Source of the DNA: a virus
Taxonomy: Duplodnaviria; Caudoviricetes
Length of the DNA: 64,000 nucleotides
Direction: 5' to 3' (one strand)
Virus record (IMG/VR): IMGVR_UViG_3300032285_003957
Span: 64,001-128,000 of that record
The notes beneath the pieces are model-generated. The model ran no database searches and was not told the origin of the DNA. It saw nothing but the letters and a program-made list of their open reading frames with translations. A program made the position numbers and the translations under genes. This document shows positions 313 through 62,650 of this stretch, in pieces (within the stretch, counting starts at the first letter, position 1; the number at the start of each line of letters is the position of its first letter).

Positions 313-1053
313 TTAAATCAATGTTTTACTTTTGTCTTGGAATATGACGTCATATCTTTCTCTAAATAACATTTGATCCTCAAGTTTTTCTTTACCAATA
401 TTATTAACATCTAAAGCGTATGAAAGAGCTAAACCTTCACCATGTCCAAATATTAATCGGTTATTTAAATTTATAGAATACAACGACATATATTCAAACA
501 CAGGTTTTATTTTTTCCAATTCATATTGAACATTATCGTAGTCCAAACCAACGGGAAAATACAATAAACGTTCGTGCATTGTCTCTAACTTAGATATATC
601 ATATTTTTCCATTTCAAAAAATTCCAATAACGGATGTGACCAAATATCAAACTTAAAATCTTTTAAAAATTGATATGTCACCCATTCTTTGCTATTTTTA
701 ACGGACCAATATGTTAAATATAACACCTTATTTTGACTTTCTAAATTTCTAAATTTTTCAATTTTAAGTAAATAATCGATACAATCACAATCAATGTAAG
801 TTACCGATTTATTTAACTCCTTAATTAACTTAAATGAAAAAAAGAACTTATCAAAGTAGCTGAATATTTTCTTATCGTATTTGTAAATTGAACATCCAAG
901 ACCTTCAAATTCTTTTGGTGTGTCAGTTAATAATCTAACATCGAAACCAAAAACATCAATCAATTGCTTTACATTCTCAACACATTGGGTGTAGTATGGA
1001 ACACCTTTGTAATCATTCCCAACAGATATAATTGCAACTGTTTTCATCTTCAT
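313..1053 (-). CDS. Hypothetical protein, possible GT-A glycosyltransferase
   Basis: ORF track; start moved to the ATG at 1053 because the track start lies inside tRNA-Glu; YIDCD motif. Confidence 0.6.
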   Translation of the reverse strand: MKMKTVAIISVGNDYKGVPYYTQCVENVKQLIDVFGFDVRLLTDTPKEFEGLGCSIYKYDKKIFSYFDKFFFSFKLIKELNKSVTYIDCDCIDYLLKIEKFRNLESQNKVLYLTYWSVKNSKEWVTYQFLKDFKFDIWSHPLLEFFEMEKYDISKLETMHERLLYFPVGLDYDNVQYELEKIKPVFEYMSLYSINLNNRLIFGHGEGLALSYALDVNNIGKEKLEDQMLFRERYDVIFQDKSKTLI

Positions 1054-1056
1054 ATG

Positions 1057-1128
1057 TACTCCCAACGGGATTCGAACCCGTGACTCATCCGTGAAAGGGA
1101 CGTGACTTAACCGCTTGTCGATGGGAGC
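1057..1128 (-). tRNA. trnE: tRNA-Glu(TTC)
   Basis: Cloverleaf GCTCCCA/TGGGAGT, anticodon arm CGTCC-CT TTC AC-GGATG, GGTTCGAATCC T-arm. Confidence 0.93.
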
Positions 1129-1142
1129 GTTTCGGGACGAGT

Positions 1143-1330
1143 CAGGTTAACTCTTGTGTCCCTACTTAATAGTTGTGTTTAGAGGGAAGTCCAAAACACG
1201 GTATTCACCAAAAGGGACTTTACTTTCGATTATCGCTGAAACTTTTAACTACGCTCAATGTATCTTTTAATTTGTTTCGTTTAACGTCCAAACAAATGTC
1301 CCAGTTGAGCGGGACAAAAAAGACGACCTG
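1143..1330 (-). ncRNA. Candidate structured ncRNA with two predicted pseudoknots
   Basis: Several 5-7 bp complementary segments in crossing topology; no credible same-strand ORF; fills the spacer between two tRNA-like units. Confidence 0.45.
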
Positions 1331-1461
1331 TGGGTTAGGAGTGGGAATCGAACCCATAACGATGCGTAATCTTCTACTTCAACTCCTTGTACTTCAGAGT
1401 CCGTCACCGCGTCCCGTATGTAGCCTCCATACGGTGCATCTTCCATTTCTGCTACCTACCC
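1331..1461 (-). ncRNA. Giant tRNA-like RNA A (131 nt)
   Basis: Acceptor GGGTAGG/CCTAACCC, Leu-type D arm GCAGAAATGGAAGATGC, 7-bp stem CCGTATG/CATACGG, about 60-nt variable region, T-arm TGGG-TTCGATT-CCCA. Confidence 0.65.
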
Positions 1462-1468
1462 AAATTTG

Positions 1469-1609
1469 CAATCAAGATAGGATTTGAACCTATAAGCCGT
1501 TTTCGTGTTCTTCCATTCCACTCAACGACATACCTATGTGATCCTGCGGGAAGAAATCGTCCATCTTGCGATGCCTACATAGGTGTGTATCACACTACAC
1601 TTCTTGATT
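1469..1609 (-). ncRNA. Giant tRNA-like RNA B (141 nt)
   Basis: Acceptor AATCAAG/CTTGATT, D stem GTGT/ACAC, 8-bp ACCTATGT/ACATAGGT enclosing 37 nt, long variable arm, T-arm ATAGG-TTCAAAT-CCTAT. Confidence 0.7.
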
Positions 1610-1613
1610 GTTG

Positions 1614-1701
1614 CGGAGAGAGTAGGATTCGAACCCACGGACCCCTTTCGAGATCTTCAGTTTTCAAGACTGACGCAATCGGCCAACTCTGCCATCTCTC
1701 C
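1614..1701 (-). tRNA. trnS: tRNA-Ser(TGA)
   Basis: GGAGAGA acceptor, TCAGT-CT TGA AA-ACTGA, long variable arm, G73. Confidence 0.95.
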
Positions 1702-1922
1702 AAATTCCCCACATTGAGATTACTTGTGAGTAGTTATTTCGGTTTTCTATTTCTTAAAAACCTGTGAGGCATCCCTCATTAAAACATCCGACCTAATACT
1801 TGGGGGAGAGTAGGTTCACAATCCTTATTCCCAACGAGTAGTTCTTAAGATGACACTACTAACGTCTAATCCATTGTTAAATGAGTCTTGGATCAAAGAC
1901 TGCTGAGTATCTCTTACTCATT
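1702..1922 (-). ncRNA. Candidate multi-hairpin ncRNA between tRNA-Asp and tRNA-Ser
   Basis: At least six short hairpins (TGAGTA/TACTCA, AGTCTT/AAGACT, AGTAGT/ACTACT, TGAGG/CCTCA, GGTTTT/AAAACC and others); no ORF. Confidence 0.4.
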
Positions 1923-1923
1923 G

Positions 1924-1997
1924 CGGAACGGACGAGACTCGAACTCGCGACCCCTACAGTGACAGTGTAGTATTCTAACCAACTGAACTACCGCTCC
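1924..1997 (-). tRNA. trnD: tRNA-Asp(GTC)
   Basis: GGAGCGG/CCGTTCC, CTACA-CT GTC AC-TGTAG, G73. Confidence 0.95.
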
Positions 1998-2083
1998 GTG
2001 TTTGATTCTAACTCACCTTAAATTGCACCATCCGAGTCACTGCTCTGGTTGACAAAGTCCTCGTTGAGTTAGTCTCAAAATTT

Positions 2084-2203
2084 TTACTTTTTTCTACGCT
2101 GTCTTAAAGCTGAACCTGCAACAGATTTGTAAGCTTTTGTTGTTTTCTTACTTCTCAATGCGCTACTTGCTTTCTTAGCAACTCTTCTTGACGTTCTTGC
2201 CAT
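2084..2203 (-). CDS. 39-aa highly basic peptide MARTSRRVAKKASSALRSKKTTKAYKSVAGSALRQRRKK (not in ORF track)
   Basis: Manual translation ATG to TAA with A-rich upstream context, directly after tRNA-fMet. Confidence 0.6.
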   Translation of the reverse strand: MARTSRRVAKKASSALRSKKTTKAYKSVAGSALRQRRKK

Positions 2204-2218
2204 AGTTAAAAGTTTTAG

Positions 2219-2290
2219 TTGCGAGAGAGGGAATCGAACCCCCGACCTAAAGGTTATGAGCCTTCCGAGCTACCGCTGCTCTATCTCGCG
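2219..2290 (-). tRNA. tRNA-Met(CAT), initiator-like (C1:A72 mismatch)
   Basis: CGCGAGA/TCTCGCA, GAAGG-CT CAT AA-CCTTT. Confidence 0.88.
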
Positions 2291-2302
2291 ATGTTTGTTT
2301 CA

Positions 2303-2332
2303 CAAAGATAAGAAATATTAATGATATACAAA
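2303..2332 (-). promoter_or_regulatory. Bacteroidota-type sigma70 promoter, internal to the array, upstream of the initiator-like tRNA
   Basis: TTTG-N18-TATCTTTG on the minus strand, matching the established -33/-7 consensus. Confidence 0.65.
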
Positions 2333-2352
2333 AATATTTCAAATCTTTTTTG

Positions 2353-2420
2353 TTGCGGGGCCAGGAGTCGAACCTGGAACACTCGGCTTATGAGGCCGGT
2401 GGGAAACCATTCTCCCCGCA
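2353..2420 (-). tRNA. tRNA(CAT) with shortened D arm (68 nt)
   Basis: TGCGGGG/CCCCGCA, CCGGC-CT CAT AA-GCCGA, canonical T-arm, D arm reduced to TGG-TTTC-CCA. Confidence 0.75.
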
Positions 2421-2425
2421 ATGTG

Positions 2426-2497
2426 GGTGTATGGACGGTATCGAACCGTCTTCCCGAGCTCCACAAACTCGTGCTTCACCTTAAAGCTTCAAACACC
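2426..2497 (-). tRNA. trnH: tRNA-His(GTG)
   Basis: G-1:C73 eight-pair acceptor, CGAGT-TT GTG GA-GCTCG. Confidence 0.9.
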
Positions 2498-2562
2498 GTG
2501 TGTGGAATCGAACCACTTTCCCATCTCCACGACAGGCGATACGTCCATTATCCTTTACCGGG
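2496..2562 (-). pseudogene. Degenerate tRNA-like remnant abutting tRNA-His
   Basis: T-arm GTGG-TTCGATT-CCAC and D-like GATA/TATC are present; acceptor and anticodon stems pair poorly. Confidence 0.4.
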
Positions 2563-2564
2563 TG

Positions 2565-2635
2565 AGTCAAGTACTGGAGTCGAACCAATCTAAAAAGTTT
2601 TGCAGACTTTCACCTAACCGCTCGGCCAACCTGAC
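2565..2635 (-). tRNA. trnC: tRNA-Cys(GCA)
   Basis: GTCAGGT/ACTTGAC, U73, AAAGT-CT GCA AA-ACTTT. Confidence 0.92.
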
Positions 2636-2639
2636 TTGT

Positions 2640-2694
2640 TTGTTCACTTTTTTCATCTGTTCACGGTCCGTGAACAATCAAATTTTGTGAACAG
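2640..2694. repeat. Symmetric element of four TGTTCAC/GTGAACA half-sites
   Basis: Heptamers at 2641, 2658, 2670 and 2687, with a dyad centre at 2667. Confidence 0.8.
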
Positions 2695-2766
2695 AGGTCT
2701 CTAAAGGATTTGAACCTTTACTAAAACATTCGTAGTGTTTCGTGCTATCCGTTACACCAAGAGACC
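2695..2766 (-). tRNA. trnR: tRNA-Arg(ACG)
   Basis: GGTCTCT/AGAGACC, AAACA-CT ACG AA-TGTTT. Confidence 0.93.
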
Positions 2767-2769
2767 TAT

Positions 2770-2958
2770 TTACTTCCATTGAGTCTTCCTTTGTTTTTTC
2801 CACGTTCTAAATTCTCTCCATTTGTGATTTGGTAGGTTACCATGATTAAAATTCCAACCATAATCCCAATCAAGTTCATATTTGTCCGGTGCTGTAACAA
2901 TTTTATACTCTTTGTTATGAGTGGTTTTTTGGCTTACCCTGCCTTTTACTGGTTTCAT
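2770..2958 (-). CDS. Small basic protein ending WKKQRKTQWK (paralog 1)
   Basis: ORF track; C-terminus shared with 3001..3174. Confidence 0.7.
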   Translation of the reverse strand: MKPVKGRVSQKTTHNKEYKIVTAPDKYELDWDYGWNFNHGNLPNHKWREFRTWKKQRKTQWK

Positions 2959-2972
2959 GCTATTAGGTTTAC

Positions 2973-2999
2973 CTAATGCATATCAAATTCTTTTTTCAT
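2973..2999 (-). CDS. 8-aa uORF MKKEFDMH (copy 1), stop codon inside hairpin ATTAGG-TAAA-CCTAAT
   Basis: ATG AAA AAA GAA TTT GAT ATG CAT TAG, starting 1 nt after the upstream stop. Confidence 0.6.
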   Translation of the reverse strand: MKKEFDMH

Positions 3000-3000
3000 T

Positions 3001-3174
3001 TTATTTCCATTTAGTTTTTCTGTGTTGTTTCCAACACTTATCAATTTTTTTTCTTGAACGATTGCAACCTTTATTAGGTCCACAGATAGGACAAGATAAT
3101 TCTCTACTCAACCAAACACGTTTAAATGTTTTACGGTCCGTAATTGTTTTGATGTTTCTTCTTGCTTTTGACAT
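3001..3174 (-). CDS. 57-aa Cys-containing basic protein ending WKQHRKTKWK (paralog 2, not in ORF track)
   Basis: Manual translation MSKARRNIKTITDRKTFKRVWLSRELSCPICGPNKGCNRSRKKIDKCWKQHRKTKWK. Confidence 0.72.
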   Translation of the reverse strand: MSKARRNIKTITDRKTFKRVWLSRELSCPICGPNKGCNRSRKKIDKCWKQHRKTKWK

Positions 3175-3190
3175 ATGATTAGGATTTTAC

Positions 3191-3217
3191 CTAATGCATG
3201 TCGAATTCTTTTTTCAT
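3191..3217 (-). CDS. 8-aa uORF MKKEFDMH (copy 2), stop codon inside hairpin ATTAGG-TAAAAT-CCTAAT
   Basis: ATG AAA AAA GAA TTC GAC ATG CAT TAG, starting 2 nt after the upstream stop. Confidence 0.6.
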   Translation of the reverse strand: MKKEFDMH

Positions 3218-3219
3218 GG

Positions 3220-3462
3220 TTACTTATATTTTCTTATTGTTTTAAAAACTTTTGTTATATCGGTCAATTCCATTACTTGGTCGTTTCTAATTGGATAAAA
3301 TGCAATTGTAAAACCGTGGTTTCCAAGATAGAAATCTTCCTTCATTATTCTATTGCCATTTACCTTTTCAAGATATATCCAAGGATAGTTACCAACCAAT
3401 TCAACGTTGATTCCTATCTTCTTTAATCTTGGGACTAACCTGTTTATTACGTTGTCTTCCAT
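3220..3462 (-). CDS. Hypothetical protein (80 aa, MEDNVINRL...)
   Basis: ORF track, trimmed to the ATG at 3462 because the longer start overlaps tRNA-Trp. Confidence 0.65.
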   Translation of the reverse strand: MEDNVINRLVPRLKKIGINVELVGNYPWIYLEKVNGNRIMKEDFYLGNHGFTIAFYPIRNDQVMELTDITKVFKTIRKYK

Positions 3463-3476
3463 AACTTTATTTTTAG

Positions 3477-3547
3477 CACGGGTGGAGAGATTCGAACTCC
3501 CATCGATGGTTTTGGAGACCATAATTCTGCCGTTGAACTACACCCGC
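3477..3547 (-). tRNA. trnW: tRNA-Trp(CCA)
   Basis: GCGGGTG/CACCCGT, ATGGT-CT CCA AA-ACCAT, G73. Confidence 0.94.
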
Positions 3548-3554
3548 GTATTTG

Positions 3555-3629
3555 TGACCCCTTTGGGACTCGAACCCAAAACCCACTGGTTAAAAGCCAG
3601 TTACTCTAATCCGATTGAGCTAAGAGGTC
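3555..3629 (-). tRNA. trnK: tRNA-Lys(TTT)
   Basis: GACCTCT/AGGGGTC, ACTGG-CT TTT AA-CCAGT. Confidence 0.95.
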
Positions 3630-3638
3630 TTACTCTTG

Positions 3639-3764
3639 TCACTTTCCATAGTTGTTGTTTTTAATTTGTTCAAATAACTTATTATGTCTTATCTTTTTAT
3701 CTTCTTGCATCTTCTTTATCAATGCAATAAAATCTTTGCTTGCTTTTACTTTAATCGTTTTCAT
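3639..3764 (-). CDS. 41-aa Lys-rich small ORF (MKTIKVKASKDFIALIKK...)
   Basis: Manual translation; fills the Phe-Lys tRNA spacer. Confidence 0.4.
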   Translation of the reverse strand: MKTIKVKASKDFIALIKKMQEDKKIRHNKLFEQIKNNNYGK

Positions 3765-3778
3765 AAAATACCTTTTAG

Positions 3779-3851
3779 TGGAAATGGTTGGTTTCGACCC
3801 AACTCCTGAAGATTTTCAGTCTTCCGCTTCTACCAAGTTAGCTTCATTTCC
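3779..3851 (-). tRNA. trnF: tRNA-Phe(GAA)
   Basis: GGAAATG/CATTTCC, GAAGA-CT GAA AA-TCTTC; T-loop starts with G. Confidence 0.92.
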
Positions 3852-3856
3852 TATTG

Positions 3857-3929
3857 TTCTTAGAGATGGGTTCGAACCATCAACCTTCCGCGTATCAGGC
3901 GGATGCTCTCACCATTGAGCTACCTAAGA
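3857..3929 (-). tRNA. trnI: tRNA-Ile(GAT)
   Basis: TCTTAGG/TCTAAGA, TCCGC-CT GAT AC-GCGGA. Confidence 0.93.
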
Positions 3930-3934
3930 ATATG

Positions 3935-4007
3935 TGGAGTAAGTGGAACTCGAATCCACAACCTCAAGAATGCAAATCTTGTGCTCATCCGCTAGAGCTT
4001 TTACCCC
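3935..4007 (-). tRNA. trnA: tRNA-Ala(TGC)
   Basis: GGGGTAA/TTACTCC with the G3:U70 Ala determinant, CAAGA-TT TGC AT-TCTTG. Confidence 0.93.
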
Positions 4008-4009
4008 AT

Positions 4010-4046
4010 AAAACAAAAAACCCCGAGATTTTTAAGTCTCAGGGTT
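4010..4046 (-). terminator. Intrinsic terminator (attenuator) immediately before the first tRNA
   Basis: 10-bp stem AACCCTGAGA/TCTCGGGGTT, 8-nt loop, then TTTTGTTTT. Confidence 0.8.
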
Positions 4047-4068
4047 CTTCAATATTGTTAGTTAAAAA

Positions 4069-4167
4069 TTACCAACCACTTGCTTCACTGAGACTATTGG
4101 ACATAGCACGCTCATCCGCCCATTTTGAACAGATAATAAACGACATTGTATGTTTTGTTTGTCTCAT
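4069..4167 (-). CDS. 32-aa leader peptide MRQTKHTMSFIICSKWADERAMSNSLSEASGW (not in ORF track)
   Basis: Manual translation; lies between promoter and terminator; contains the antiterminator arm AGTCTCAG. Confidence 0.7.
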   Translation of the reverse strand: MRQTKHTMSFIICSKWADERAMSNSLSEASGW

Positions 4168-4194
4168 CGAAGTTTTTTTTAATTTAATCTTTTA

Positions 4195-4226
4195 CAAAGA
4201 TAACAATAAGTATCCGAAAAAACAAG
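4195..4226 (-). promoter_or_regulatory. Bacteroidota-type promoter driving the leader and tRNA array
   Basis: CTTG-N20-TATCTTTG, about 30 nt upstream of the leader ATG. Confidence 0.7.
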
Positions 4227-4290
4227 AAAAGTTCAAAATATTTTTTTTCTTAAAATAGAATATAGAGATTGCCTAATGATATTTATCAGT

Positions 4291-4788
4291 ATGACAAAAA
4301 TATTGAAGGTATCTCTCCTACCTTTATTCATGCTGTTTATGGGCCAAACCCACGCCCAAAAAGTATATCTTGATAAGGTAGAGAACAAAGTTGTAATGGG
4401 TAAAATGGCCGGTAACCGTAATCTTGGTTTCGGTTGTAAAAACATTTTCTTAGAAATTTTACAGGACAAAAATTATGATATTACCGAAACTGTGGCAGAC
4501 GCTGACATGGTATTTAAGGCTGATATTATGTATTTTGATGTAAACAGAACAAAAAGAAATGTGTCTGTATTCCATTCCGATGTGGAAGAGACTTTGGTTG
4601 TAATCAAGGGGTATCTCTATGACAAAAGTGGTAAAAAAATTAAAGAGGCTGTTGCAGAAGAGTCAAGTTCAGAAATATCCACATCAACACTTATAACAGA
4701 TGAAGGAAGTAGCTCCATAAATCAACAAGCTTTATCGCAAGCCATTAAAAAAACTTGCGTTACATTAATAAATAAAATTTTTAAATAA
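4291..4788 (+). CDS. Secreted protein, CsgG/LptE-like alpha-beta fold (tentative)
   Basis: Signal peptide ending THA-Q; start preferred at 4291, after the TATTTAT motif. Confidence 0.55.
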   Translation: MTKILKVSLLPLFMLFMGQTHAQKVYLDKVENKVVMGKMAGNRNLGFGCKNIFLEILQDKNYDITETVADADMVFKADIMYFDVNRTKRNVSVFHSDVEETLVVIKGYLYDKSGKKIKEAVAEESSSEISTSTLITDEGSSSINQQALSQAIKKTCVTLINKIFK

Positions 4789-48580: not shown

Positions 48581-49810
48581 TTACTTGTTTATAATTGATT
48601 TAAAAAATTCTACTCTATCTTGACAAACTTTTTTTAATGAGTATTTGTCTTTAACCGTCTCATATAATCTCATACCTAAATCCTCAATCATATTAGGGTT
48701 TTCAATTAAACGTTTCATATGTTTTCCCCAATCTTTGTGGTTTCGTTTTGGGTTAACAAATAATGCGTTTCCTTTATCATTGAATTTACCTTCGTCAACA
48801 GCTGAAATTAAATCTAACGTATATGGTTTTGTTTCACTTGCAATAATAGCTTTTTTATGAAAGCCCGCCTCAATAATTTTTAATTGAGATTTATTTGCAT
48901 TAAACTCACTTTCAACAATAGGAGCTAAAGATACATCAAATAAATTGTAATTAAATGCGTATTTTGTAATTTCTTGTGTCCATACTCTTCTATATGGTTT
49001 ATCAATATCGTTGTATGGAATTTGTATGAAGTCTGTAAGATAATTTTTATAATCTTCGTCTAAAACTTTATAGTTATCGGTAAAAATTTTTTCATATTTA
49101 TACCAAACAGTTTCCATTGGTTCAATTGGTCTTTGTTTTTGTTGACCAGTGTTTCTATCGATTTCATGAACAGTTCCTCTTAAATCAAATCCACATAAAA
49201 CAAATTGAACTTTATCTTTGAAGCTGTTATGTGTTGTTGAAATTCCTTGTTCTAATAATTCGATATCATATAAATGTGATGAACCACCTAACCACCCAAA
49301 TCTAACTTTATCCGATTTTGTTGGTTGAGATTTAAATTGTTCTTCATCTTCGTTTACCGCATTTGGAAAAACTAAGATATTCTCTATTTTTAATTTTTGT
49401 TTAATCGTATCTGCAAATATTGGTGTAGTCGTTGTAACATAATCAGCCAATTTTAACATTTCAATTTTCTTCTCGCCGACTTTGTTATGTTTAATATGTT
49501 GATACATTGGATGTCTATGGTCAACAAACCATAAATCGTCAATATCCATAACAACTTTAATACCATTTTCTTTTAACCACTTTATTCTATTGATGTTATC
49601 TTCATGTGTGGTTATATGGATAAAACTATGTAAAACAACGATATCGTAATTTCTAAAAAATTCATCGTCATTTGGATCAACCTTAGTTGCTAAATCAACA
49701 TGTATTTCGTCTTGATGATTTTCACCTATAAACGTGTATGGGTCAGACATTCTAAATTTACCCACGCCGTGCTTGTCAGATGGTATTGCTAATATTCTAA
49801 TTTTTGACAT
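48581..49810 (-). CDS. GT-B glycosyltransferase
   Basis: DIDDLW, GWLGGSSH, NKSQLKIIEAG; start trimmed to MSKIRIL. Confidence 0.78.
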   Translation of the reverse strand: MSKIRILAIPSDKHGVGKFRMSDPYTFIGENHQDEIHVDLATKVDPNDDEFFRNYDIVVLHSFIHITTHEDNINRIKWLKENGIKVVMDIDDLWFVDHRHPMYQHIKHNKVGEKKIEMLKLADYVTTTTPIFADTIKQKLKIENILVFPNAVNEDEEQFKSQPTKSDKVRFGWLGGSSHLYDIELLEQGISTTHNSFKDKVQFVLCGFDLRGTVHEIDRNTGQQKQRPIEPMETVWYKYEKIFTDNYKVLDEDYKNYLTDFIQIPYNDIDKPYRRVWTQEITKYAFNYNLFDVSLAPIVESEFNANKSQLKIIEAGFHKKAIIASETKPYTLDLISAVDEGKFNDKGNALFVNPKRNHKDWGKHMKRLIENPNMIEDLGMRLYETVKDKYSLKKVCQDRVEFFKSIINK

Positions 49811-59752: not shown

Positions 59753-62650
59753 ATGAAAGAGGTTATCTCTCAGGAGGTTATTGAGGCATTTCTCAATGGC
59801 GGCGACGATGAAATGTATATCGTTGGAGTCGAATACGACTACAGAACAAACAAAATTCACAAAATTATTCAAGACCCTGAACAGGGTAAAATTATCAAAC
59901 CAGATACGTTCACACCATTCTTATGGGTTGGTGATTTATCGGGCTTAGGGTTTTATGGTAATTCTAAAGCAACGCAAAAAAAGGCGATGACCAAACATGG
60001 AATTATTATAGAAAAACTTGAAACCGATGGAAACGAACGATTAGAAAATGGCTTAAAGTATTTGGTTAAATCATTAAAGAGTTACACCAATTTAACAAGT
60101 TTTTTTAAAGAGGGTGGTATTGACCCATGGGGTGAAAATTTTAGACAATACTTTGCTATTTTATCGCCTGTTGAGCAATATCTAATAGATAAGAGAAAAA
60201 GATTATTTAAAGGTATTGATGATTATTCAGGTGTTCATCGATTTGTATTCGATATTGAGACGACAGGTTTGGAACCCGAAAATTGTAACATTATTTTGAT
60301 TGGTGTTAAAGATAATAGAGGGTTAAACAGAACTATTCCTGCGTTTGGTGAAGATGGTGAAAAAAAATGTATTGAAGAATTTTTCTTAATTATTAGAGAA
60401 ATAAAACCAACAATAATCGGTGGATATAACTCAGCATTTTTTGACTGGCCATTTATATTAAAGCGTGCTGAAATTTTAGGGGTCGATACTCAAGGCTTAA
60501 CCAAAATATTTACAAATGATGGTATTTCAGAAAAAGAAGGTATGCTTAAACTTGCTAATGAAGTTGAACCATACAAACAACATGTCATATGGGGATTTAA
60601 CATTGTTGATATTGCGCATGCTGTTCGTAGAGCACAAGCAATCAACTCAGAAATCAAATCATGGGGATTAAAATACATTACAAAATATTTGGAAAAAGAA
60701 AAACCTAATCGTGTTTATGTAGAAGGTTCAAAAATTTCTAAAATATATTTGGATAATGAAACATATTATGTAAATCCTAAAACAGGTGGTTACAAATTAG
60801 TTGGTGAACCTGGTACCGAAGATTTATTAATAAAATATCCAAATAAATTTGAAGTATGGGGTGGGCAAAAAATCGTGGAGCAATATCTTGATGATGACTT
60901 AACAGAAACTATGGTTGTTGATGATTCTTTTAGTCAATCAACATTTTTACTTTCTAAGTTAGTCCCAACAACATATGAGAGGATTGCAACAATGGGAACA
61001 GCTACATTATGGAAAATTATCATGTTAGCTTGGTCTTATGAAAATGGTTTAGCGATTCCCGCAAAAGATGAGAAGCGAGCAATCACAGGTGGTTTATCAC
61101 GTTTGTTAAATGTCGGCTATTCAAAGAATATCGTTAAGTTTGACTATGCATCACTTTATCCATCAATTCAATTAGTATATGATGTGTTCCCTGAATGTGA
61201 TGTTATGGGCGTTCAGAAATCAATGTTAAAATATTTCCGTAACATTCGTATTAAGTATAAACGTTTAGCGGGTGAATTGGCTAAAACAAATCCAGTTGAA
61301 GCTGAAATGTATGACCGTAAACAATTACCGATTAAGATTTTTATTAACGCTTATTTTGGTTCATTATCTGCACCACATGTATTTCCTTGGGGAGATATGA
61401 ATATGGGTGAAACAATTACTTGCACAGGTCGTCAATGTTTACGTATGATGATTATGTTCTTTATGAAAAAAGGTTATAAACCTCTTGTGATGGATACGGA
61501 TGGTGTTAACTTTGAAACGCCCTCAACAATTGATACACACACATATATTGGTAAAGGTTTAAATGAATTAACCGAAGAGGGTAAAGAATATAAAGGTATT
61601 GAAGCAGACACAGCCGAATTCAATGATATCTTTATGAGAAATGAAATGGGTTTAGATATTGACTATGTTGCGCCTGCTTGTATTAATGTATCTCGTAAGA
61701 ATTACATTATCAAAATGATGAAAAAAGGTAAAGAGAAAATTAAATTAACGGGTAATACTATCAAGTCAAAAAAATTACAACAATATGTTGTTGAGTTTTT
61801 AGATGAAGGTTTAAAATATTTGTTAAATGGCGATGGTCATGCTTTTGTGGAATTGTATTATGATTATGTAAATAAAATTTATAATAAGGAAATTCCATTA
61901 GCAAAGATTGCAAACAAATCTCGTGTTAAACAATCGTTAGAGGATTATAAAAAACACATTAAGAAAACTACTAAAGCAGGTTCATTAATGTCGAGACAAG
62001 CACACATGGAATTAATTTTGGAAAACAATTATCCTGCGGGTCTCGGTGAAACAATCTATTATGTTAATAACGGTATTAAAAAATCATCAGGCGATGTTCA
62101 AAAAATAACTAAACCAACTAAAAAAGCACAAGAAGAATTTTTAGCTAAACATGGTCACCCAATGCCAAATGATTATATTGAAATTAATTGTTATATGATT
62201 CCTGAAAAGGAAATTACTAATAATCCTGATTTGAAAGGTGATTATAATGTTGCTCGTTATTTGAATAATTTCAATAAAAGAATTGAACCATTATTATGTG
62301 TATTCAAAACAGATATTCGTGACGACATCTTAATTGAAGACCCAAAGGATAGACAATACTTTACTAAATCACAATGTGAACTTGTTAATGGTTTCCCATT
62401 AAAAGAAGATGGTCAAGATAAATTTGATGAAGTAATGACTTTATCTGATAGTGAAGTTTTGTTTTGGAACAGAGTTAAAAGAGACCCTTTCTTTATGTAT
62501 GTTGAAAACAGTTTAGAACTTGTTGACCAAAATTGGGTTGAGCACAATAGAAAAGTTGTTGCATTACAAGCAAATAGCACCGTAAGTAATGAAGATGAAA
62601 TCATTGAAACAAATGGACATGATTATGCTTATCATGCGATAGAAAGTTAA
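59753..62650 (+). CDS. polB: DNA polymerase family B with 3'-5' exonuclease
   Basis: FDIETTG, YNSAFFD, FDYASLYPS, KIFINAYFG, DTDG. Confidence 0.93.
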   Translation: MKEVISQEVIEAFLNGGDDEMYIVGVEYDYRTNKIHKIIQDPEQGKIIKPDTFTPFLWVGDLSGLGFYGNSKATQKKAMTKHGIIIEKLETDGNERLENGLKYLVKSLKSYTNLTSFFKEGGIDPWGENFRQYFAILSPVEQYLIDKRKRLFKGIDDYSGVHRFVFDIETTGLEPENCNIILIGVKDNRGLNRTIPAFGEDGEKKCIEEFFLIIREIKPTIIGGYNSAFFDWPFILKRAEILGVDTQGLTKIFTNDGISEKEGMLKLANEVEPYKQHVIWGFNIVDIAHAVRRAQAINSEIKSWGLKYITKYLEKEKPNRVYVEGSKISKIYLDNETYYVNPKTGGYKLVGEPGTEDLLIKYPNKFEVWGGQKIVEQYLDDDLTETMVVDDSFSQSTFLLSKLVPTTYERIATMGTATLWKIIMLAWSYENGLAIPAKDEKRAITGGLSRLLNVGYSKNIVKFDYASLYPSIQLVYDVFPECDVMGVQKSMLKYFRNIRIKYKRLAGELAKTNPVEAEMYDRKQLPIKIFINAYFGSLSAPHVFPWGDMNMGETITCTGRQCLRMMIMFFMKKGYKPLVMDTDGVNFETPSTIDTHTYIGKGLNELTEEGKEYKGIEADTAEFNDIFMRNEMGLDIDYVAPACINVSRKNYIIKMMKKGKEKIKLTGNTIKSKKLQQYVVEFLDEGLKYLLNGDGHAFVELYYDYVNKIYNKEIPLAKIANKSRVKQSLEDYKKHIKKTTKAGSLMSRQAHMELILENNYPAGLGETIYYVNNGIKKSSGDVQKITKPTKKAQEEFLAKHGHPMPNDYIEINCYMIPEKEITNNPDLKGDYNVARYLNNFNKRIEPLLCVFKTDIRDDILIEDPKDRQYFTKSQCELVNGFPLKEDGQDKFDEVMTLSDSEVLFWNRVKRDPFFMYVENSLELVDQNWVEHNRKVVALQANSTVSNEDEIIETNGHDYAYHAIES

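Follow-up and report, generated by a model that had tools for sequence, protein, structure and literature searches.

Known leader-ORF systems and the phage module

Translational coupling through a leader peptide is established for the plasmid rep genes tap-repA, repY-repZ and repR-repA (PMC8053102). In plasmid R1 (tap-repA), in IncI/IncB plasmids (repY-repZ, repBA) and in IncI2 plasmids (repR-repA), the main gene is translated only if a short leader open reading frame (ORF) is translated. A stem-loop blocks the main start, and the leader ORF has its end at or inside this structure, so that the terminating ribosome opens it and re-initiation follows (PMC8053102). Here we describe a phage module for which the same course of events is proposed. 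It lies in a 64,000-nt stretch (the window) of a 234-kb IMG/VR virus record (IMGVR_UViG_3300032285_003957, positions 64,001 to 128,000) and consists of two copies of an 8-codon mini-ORF and a hairpin, each in front of a gene for a small basic protein, with all features on the minus strand among tRNA genes. Analysis of this module and of its relatives in other phages indicates that the mini-ORF and its hairpin are very probably a real, undescribed translational control element.

The phage module differs from the plasmid rep leaders in several respects. The plasmid leaders are 19–29 codons long as compared to 8 codons in the phage module, and neither an antisense RNA nor a pseudoknot is evident in the latter, no search aimed at an antisense promoter having been made. 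Unlike the plasmid systems, the phage module works in a setting without Shine-Dalgarno (SD) sites, the controlled gene encodes a small phage protein in tRNA arrays, and the leader peptide itself is conserved (K2, K3 and D6).

The ermC, ermB, cat and cmlA attenuators also place a short leader ORF beside a hairpin which masks the start and is opened by a ribosome in the leader. However, these leaders need drug-dependent stalling and usually alternative hairpins, whereas the phage module has a single hairpin with the stop codon in its stem and no known inducer. The bypass element of T4 gene 60 shares with the module a last sense codon followed by UAG inside a hairpin, and a short gap before coding resumes. 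Bypassing of this type was rejected for the module: only 2 of the 54 leaders contain an in-frame pair of matching take-off and landing codons, the spacing does not keep to one frame, and each main ORF has its own start codon. The CAT...CAT seen in the first copy follows from the palindrome ATGCAT.

Starts closed by local structure and opened by another transcript form or by upstream translation are found in the T4 genes e, soc and I-TevI and in RNA phage MS2. In these cases the opening depends on a different promoter or on a full-length upstream gene, whereas the phage module would use a dedicated 8-codon ORF. The module has three features of leader-ORF coupling, namely a conserved upstream ORF, a sequestered main start, and a leader stop in or next to a structure near the main start. 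The device would work like known leader-ORF coupling with start unmasking, and it is its form and setting which are new: 8 codons, a stop inside the stem, SD-less translation, phage tRNA arrays and a dedicated family of unknown proteins. We did not find the element described in the literature searched. It matches no Rfam 15 family, and a search of window positions 1000–4300 at E <= 1 gave only tRNAs and sub-threshold chance matches.

Organization of the two leaders in the window

The core features of the module are as follows.

3191..3217, minus strand: mini-ORF copy 1, MKKEFDMH plus TAG (8 codons and stop), ATGAAAAAAGAATTCGACATGCATTAG; covariance model R1, 29.7 bits
3175..3199, minus strand: hairpin 1, AUG-(C)-AUUAGG / CCUAAU-CAU, 6-nt loop; from the fold, with covariation in relatives
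3001..3174, minus strand: gene for a 57-aa basic, Cys-rich protein; family profile E = 8.5e-11
2973..2999, minus strand: mini-ORF copy 2, MKKEFDMH plus TAG, with TTT and GAT; covariance model R1, 34.5 bits
2956..2982, minus strand: hairpin 2, UAUGCAUUAGG / CCUAAU-(A)-GCAUG, 4-nt loop; from the fold
2770..2958, minus strand: gene for a 62-aa basic protein, C-terminus REFRTWKKQRKTQWK; family profile E = 1.9e-23

Copy 1 reads, by codon, ATG AAA AAA GAA TTC GAC ATG CAT TAG. As the initial annotation had stated, the two 27-nt copies differ at only two positions, both of them synonymous third positions (TTT/TTC and GAT/GAC). Its statement that each copy starts 1–2 nt past the preceding stop also agrees with the coordinates: copy 1 begins 2 nt past the TAA of an upstream 80-aa ORF and copy 2 begins 1 nt past the TAA of the 57-aa ORF. 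This tight placement is peculiar to the window. The main ATG that follows copy 1 is at 3174, 16 nt past the mini-ORF stop (43 nt from ATG to ATG), and the one that follows copy 2 is at 2958, 14 nt past the stop (41 nt from ATG to ATG), which bears out the earlier view that the mini-ORF and the main ORF are not fused in frame. The two leaders account for a 32-nt repeat of 94% identity with a spacing of 218 nt.

The 28-nt mini-ORF pattern matches the window twice, compared to 0.00 matches expected from shuffles, and scans with the pattern and with the covariance model revealed no third copy anywhere in the 234-kb genome. A weak covariance-model match in the same genome (G000, 48857–48902) was judged not to be a copy.

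The hairpin ATTAGG/CCTAAT around the TAG, proposed earlier, is present in both copies; it ends 3 nt before the ATG in both, rather than 3–4 nt. In the folds this stem is lengthened by pairing of AUG(C) from codons 7–8 with (G)CAU before the main AUG. Hairpin 1 thereby holds codons 7–8 and the UAG and reaches right up to the main AUG, while the stem of hairpin 2 takes in the A and U of the main AUG itself. Minimum free energies are -7.0 kcal/mol for copy 1 (z = -2.35) and -9.9 kcal/mol for copy 2 (z = -3.29).

Conservation of the mini-ORF in other phages

Pattern scans of IMG/VR revealed the same mini-ORF and hairpin in many contigs. As these scans fixed part of the sequence, an independent sample was built from the profile of the downstream protein only (80 loci). 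This leader-blind set comprises 56 distinct upstream regions, including those of both copies in the window. A mini-ORF is present in 54 of the 56 regions, whereas dinucleotide shuffles give 8.4 on average and 15 at most. Exactly 8 codons followed by a paired stop are found in 43 regions against 0.19 expected from shuffles. The peptide and hairpin upstream of genes encoding an RKTxWK-type C-terminus, as first noted in the window, thus recur in dozens of uncultured phages.

The mini-ORF is 8 codons long in 49 cases, 7 codons in three, and 10 and 11 codons in one case each. All five length variants keep the frame from the homologous ATGAARAAR start to the stop in the stem. The ATG is invariant, and the stop position holds TAG (32), TGA (19) or TAA (3) but never a sense codon. 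It had been suggested that the element would be called into question if homologs kept the nucleotides and not the frame; examination of the homologs reveals that the frame is kept. Conservation of the frame, of the 8-codon length and of an in-frame stop in the 5' arm across dozens of diverged phages, together with a covarying hairpin, supports a conserved cis-element as opposed to a local duplication accident.

Comparison of 37 distinct 27-nt versions yields the consensus M-K-K-x-[F/Y]-D-x-[H/L/Y]. Codon 3 is AAA in 15 and AAG in 19 versions and codon 6 is GAC in 19 and GAT in 16, with the first and second bases invariant; codon 6 is always NAY (GAY 35, TAY 2), and codon 4 is free. Codons 7–8 take the forms MH, ML, NL, AH, FY, KY, KL, FL, GY and TH, and a third scan which left both codons free added AL, KH, GH, NH, RH and MY. 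These two codons change together with the 3' arm of the hairpin, which argues that it is RNA pairing that constrains them. The stop codons are also unusual in composition, since TAA ends only 3 of 54 mini-ORFs (6%) as compared to 42 of 46 ordinary window genes (91%). This reflects either a requirement for G-C pairs in the stem or a preference for slower stops.

The initial annotation had proposed a sensor of translation status tuned to His or to the tRNAs of the array. The array does carry tRNAs for Met, Lys, Glu, Phe, Asp and His (ARAGORN), so that all mini-ORF codons are served by array tRNAs in the window; this does not hold in the relatives, whose mini-ORFs also use V, L, N, T, Q, Y, A, G and I. 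Codon 8 encodes His in 12, Leu in 15 and Tyr in 10 of the 37 distinct mini-ORFs. On this sequence comparison, a sensor specific to His or to the array tRNA set is not supported as stated.

Structure and covariation of the hairpin

Every leader folds into a single hairpin which encloses the stop codon, and no fold contains mutually exclusive alternative hairpins. Stems are 8–14 bp long, and in 48 of 54 leaders two or more bases of the stop codon take part in the pairing. The end of the stem lies -3 to +4 nt relative to the main ATG. The distance from the stop to the ATG ranges from 13 to 28 nt without a preferred frame (7, 32 and 15 leaders in the three classes modulo 3).

Pairing between the arms was assessed in two ways. 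In a swap test, native pairs of 5' and 3' arms bind with -9.5 kcal/mol as compared to -4.7 kcal/mol for non-native partners, and when the partner comes from a leader whose 5' arm is dissimilar, only 5% bind as well as the native one. Plain MAFFT alignments yielded no RNAalifold consensus, since differences in loop length shift the register. A covariance model was built from six leaders and was used to recover and align the remaining ones. In this alignment 90% of the cells are paired. Column shuffles give 69%, with 0 of 500 as high as the alignment itself, and a slid partner gives only 24–48%. Changes on both sides are found in 8 of 9 base pairs.

Switches of the stop codon itself are compensated, as seen in ..CTTTGAG/CTCAAAG.. 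compared to ..CTTTAAG/CTCTAAAG.. in a marine contig, and a TAA stop is accommodated in the stem TTAAGTT/AACTTAA. The stem contains G-U pairs, and only on the sense strand, which argues for RNA of the coding strand rather than a DNA site.

The hairpin masks the region of the main start, whereas the mini-ORF start is open and A-rich. Unpaired probability over positions -12 to +5 is 0.35 for the main start and 0.74 for the mini-ORF start, compared to 0.54 +/- 0.15 for 46 other window genes. The pairing and masking data support the earlier suggestion that a ribosome at the mini-ORF stop must melt a hairpin which masks the next start.

Start-site context and host type

An SD-like motif is present in 1 of 46 window genes, and the upstream regions are 50–60% A. 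At both the mini-ORF starts and the main starts, A is found at -3 and at -11 to -13, where it is a positive determinant in Flavobacterium johnsoniae (PMC6847099). Initiation in this bacterium depends on secondary structure and on A at -3, -6, -12 and -13, and there is a depletion of AUG triplets in the vicinity of starts (PMC6847099). Because of this depletion, a conserved upstream AUG in good context is unlikely to be idle. The phage, which makes no use of SD sites, agrees with this pattern, and its host would be of Bacteroidota type. A host-assignment scan found no type IX secretion system (T9SS) or other host marker. The window also encodes a 965-aa family-B DNA polymerase (59753–62647, plus strand), the nearest cultured relatives of which are those of Salinibacter phages, at only ~25% identity.

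Start codons other than ATG are found at some of the main genes. The main start of an intact family gene is ATA in L010, L027, L094 and L097 (82% identical to the 62-aa protein) and GTG in L076. It might be that ATA and GTG main starts are tolerated if translation begins by re-initiation.

Genomic setting and the downstream protein family

In the window the module is flanked by the following features.

3476..3547, minus strand: tRNA-Trp (CCA), upstream boundary of the module; ARAGORN and Rfam
3220..3462, minus strand: 80-aa ORF, phrog_38683 (function unknown); ORF list and PHROG match
2694..2766, minus strand: tRNA-Arg (ACG), downstream boundary, 3 nt past the 62-aa gene; ARAGORN

The order on the minus strand from 5' to 3' is therefore tRNA-Trp, 80-aa ORF, its TAA and CC, mini-ORF 1, 16 nt and the 57-aa ORF, followed by its TAA and A, mini-ORF 2, 14 nt, the 62-aa ORF, 3 nt and tRNA-Arg. 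The 80-aa ORF starts 13 nt past tRNA-Trp, its TAA lies 2 nt before copy 1, and it has no mini-ORF leader of its own. A gene of the 62-aa type followed by tRNA-Arg is also kept in two relatives (L004 and L095). In L095 a homolog of the 80-aa ORF is followed by a single leader, a 64-aa gene and tRNA-Arg. As this relative has one leader and one family gene, the window carries one extra 218-nt cassette composed of a leader and the 57-aa gene.

Among the 52 loci analysed for their setting, 50 lie inside tRNA arrays. The mini-ORF starts 0–15 nt (mostly 12–15 nt) past the 3' end of a tRNA in 28 of 52, and the gene ends within 60 nt of the next tRNA in 15 of 52. The leader is preceded by a protein gene in place of a tRNA in the window, L004, L005 and L038, and in L038 that gene is another member of the family. 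Reading of the sequence suggests a putative HNH motif in the gene before the leader in L004 and L005, and a homing-endonuclease-like gene in L003.

The proteins downstream of the leader align as one family of 57–82 aa, some members of which have a CxxC...C insert. Their C-terminus is conserved as R-x-Y-[RK]-[ST]-W-K-x-x-R-K-T-Q-[WY]-K. The 57-aa protein of the window contains CPICGPNKGCN and ends in WKQHRKTKWK; it belongs to the same family as the 62-aa protein and shares its C-terminal motif, in agreement with their earlier description as paralogs. No significant match for the family was found in Pfam, PHROGs, sequences of the PDB or GenBank phages. Searching 1.84 billion representatives with the family profile yielded 193 clusters at 50% identity (44–123 aa), all of them unnamed or 'hypothetical', from freshwater and marine samples. 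In cellular genomes the family occurs on only two contigs of metagenome-assembled genomes (MAGs), both with the leader: L185 (PLXT01000115.1, a 170-kb contig of a 'Methanobacterium' MAG) and L186 (of a Saccharibacteria MAG). These are probably phage contigs misbinned into cellular MAGs. The AlphaFold2 model of the 62-aa protein has a mean predicted local distance difference test (pLDDT) score of 66.6; only a C-terminal helix over the conserved motif is modelled, with moderate confidence, and the model is too weak for a fold search. One family gene (L119, 1468–2200, plus strand) appears to continue in frame into an HNH endonuclease-like domain, judging from its sequence, with a total length of ~235 aa.

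The leader is nearly exclusive to this family, with one clear exception. In L047 (9726–9775), L069 (8754–8803), L197 and L224 a leader MKKKFDMY with TAG and hairpin precedes a 76-aa protein (MKTKKRWSWTEAQRRRH...CAGWIYF), which is unrelated to the family (hhalign probability 0.07%). The presence of the same leader before an unrelated protein indicates that it can serve another gene.

Other elements were observed nearby in the array of the window. A 13th tRNA, missed by ARAGORN, lies at 2353–2420 (minus strand) between tRNA-Met and tRNA-His (Rfam tRNA model 35.7 bits, E = 4.4e-5). An extremely basic 39-aa ORF (MARTSRRVAKKASSALRSKK...) at 2084–2203 (minus strand), located between tRNA genes, matches phrog_5079 of unknown function (E = 6e-10) and has no mini-ORF leader. 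The spacer between tRNA-Arg and tRNA-Cys (2636–2690) contains GTTCAC/GTGAAC half-sites. These are found at the same place in L004 (1040–1110) and L005, so that the spacer element is conserved.

A proposed mechanism of leader-ORF coupling

We propose that the element is a conserved translational leader in which coupling to a leader ORF unmasks the main start, and assign to this reading a probability of roughly 0.55. An open, A-rich start site would drive translation of the 8-codon mini-ORF (M-K-K-x-F/Y-D-x-x). The 5' arm of the hairpin would be formed by codons 7–8 and the mini-ORF stop, and the 3' arm by the last ~10 nt before the main AUG, at times with the AUG itself. Since start sites in an SD-less host depend on unpaired A-rich RNA, this hairpin would hold the main start closed. 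A ribosome translating the mini-ORF to its stop would unwind the hairpin and terminate 13–28 nt before the main AUG, and translation of the main gene might then start by re-initiation or with a new ribosome that loads while the site is briefly open. Synthesis of the small protein would be tied strictly to translation of the mini-ORF and would reach a fraction of the mini-ORF rate. In this manner the leader may act as a gate or throttle for a gene located in the very heavily transcribed RNA of a tRNA array.

The proposal draws on the conserved frame and length of the mini-ORF, the position of its stop, the covarying hairpin, the masked main start and the association with tRNA arrays and a single gene family. 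Several points weigh against it. We infer both the translation of the mini-ORF and the dependence of the main gene on it, and the type of host is likewise deduced from sequence features. Conserved K2, K3 and D6 are not needed for simple coupling; their conservation hints at an extra layer, which could be peptide or codon sensing or a protein-binding site. In one relative (L107) a family gene directly follows a tRNA without a leader, and in another (L144) the mini-ORF is out of frame with the TAG of the stem and overlaps the main start by 24 nt. The sequences are kin, so the counts given above do not represent independent events. Finally, the covariance alignment is fitted to its model, a weakness of which the swap test is free.

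Alternative explanations

The conserved residues bring in the first alternative, in which the mini-ORF is an arrest peptide or a sensor of hungry codons, as in the erm, cat and tna leaders. The MKKx(F/Y)D peptide or the Lys-Lys and Asp codons would pause the ribosome in response to a ligand, to a scarce release factor, or to tRNA-Lys or tRNA-Asp that is scarce or cleaved; a ribosome paused at codons 6–8 or at the stop would keep the hairpin open and induce the small protein. K2, K3 and D6 are nearly invariant with synonymous wobble, and codon 6, always NAY, stands directly before the stem, so that a ribosome paused there covers the 5' arm. The rarity of TAA among the mini-ORF stops fits slow termination, and the gene sits among phage tRNA genes. 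However, the last two residues vary freely with the stem, there is one hairpin and no alternative pairing of the kind found in erm or cat leaders, and a sensor of starvation built on one Asp codon and two Lys codons would be weak. An AT-rich stem needs G-C pairs, which explains the bias against TAA equally well. We consider stalling of this kind unlikely.

A true sensor would go further. In such a case the Lys-Lys and Asp codons, or the nascent MKKx(F/Y)D, would cause ribosomes to pause immediately before the stem or within it if release factors run short or if tRNA-Lys or tRNA-Asp is lost, through depletion or through cleavage (as by host anticodon nucleases), and the small protein would be switched on while the hairpin is held open. 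The small basic protein would then act on tRNA, on the ribosome or on host defence, and the phage would encode a switch responding to translation status in a host without SD sites. This is a rather improbable reading.

It is improbable, too, that the leader is purely repressive, with the mini-ORF diverting ribosomes, the hairpin blocking the main start and the protein made only from rare spontaneous opening. The strong masking of the main start and an upstream AUG in good context would agree with such a role, and damping would be useful in highly transcribed tRNA arrays. Repression of this kind leaves unexplained the stop inside the 5' arm, the 8-codon length and the 13–28 nt from stop to AUG, as a repressive upstream ORF (uORF) could end anywhere.

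The close spacing to tRNA genes raises another explanation, in which tRNA-processing enzymes free a short mRNA that is protected from nucleases by a ribosome at its 5' end and by the hairpin, or in which the hairpin guides a cut, access to the start being secondary. Because 28 of 52 mini-ORFs stand so close behind tRNA 3' ends (0–15 nt), a released mRNA would have almost no 5' leader, and the short distance from the gene end to the next tRNA (<=60 nt in 15 of 52 loci) fits the same picture. But the 3' arm is always at the main AUG, which is unnecessary for a stabiliser; the leader stands behind a protein gene, not a tRNA, in the window, L004 and L038; and stems of 8–14 bp are short for RNase III. 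An element for RNA stability or processing is thus very unlikely.

We give least credence to an autoregulatory operator, in which the small basic protein would bind its own leader (single-stranded AUGAAAAAR..UUYGAY or the hairpin) and stop its own synthesis, in the manner of ribosomal-protein leaders and of the targets of T4 gp32 or RegA: the leader is almost exclusive to the family, its one clear exception being a second small family, and the proteins are very basic with a predicted C-terminal helix, but hairpin and loop sequences are highly variable, the unrelated 76-aa protein has the same leader, and frame-preserving length changes with three types of stop point to translation and not to a binding site. 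Autoregulation could nevertheless coexist with leader coupling.

A number of further candidates were rejected outright. An intrinsic terminator or classical attenuator would need a U tract, while here the stem is followed by CAUAUG or AGCAUG; the same lack of a U tract, with at most one, non-conserved His codon, excludes a transcription attenuator of the his or trp leader type. Read-through or recoding of the TAG cannot fuse the mini-ORF to the main ORF, as the window copies are in different frames and the spacing in relatives has no fixed frame. Slippage by -1 on A AAA AAR meets a stop few nt on and gives no product, and a DNA-level operator does not agree with G-U stem pairs confined to the sense strand.

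Implications

Among phages of SD-less (Bacteroidota-type) hosts, leader-ORF coupling as proposed here would be the first device to be described in which a conserved uORF and a hairpin provide the coupling. Such hosts choose their starts by unpaired A-rich RNA and normally avoid upstream AUGs. The natural variants of the module, with three stops, many stems, spacings of 13–28 nt and ATA or GTG starts, form a compact test bed for SD-free termination-reinitiation and for start masking. The 27-nt ORF, although conserved, is missed by gene callers. The module also draws attention to a widespread family of small basic proteins, located almost entirely inside phage tRNA arrays, and the tight translational control proposed for it suggests a dose-sensitive role of the small protein linked to tRNA or to the ribosome.

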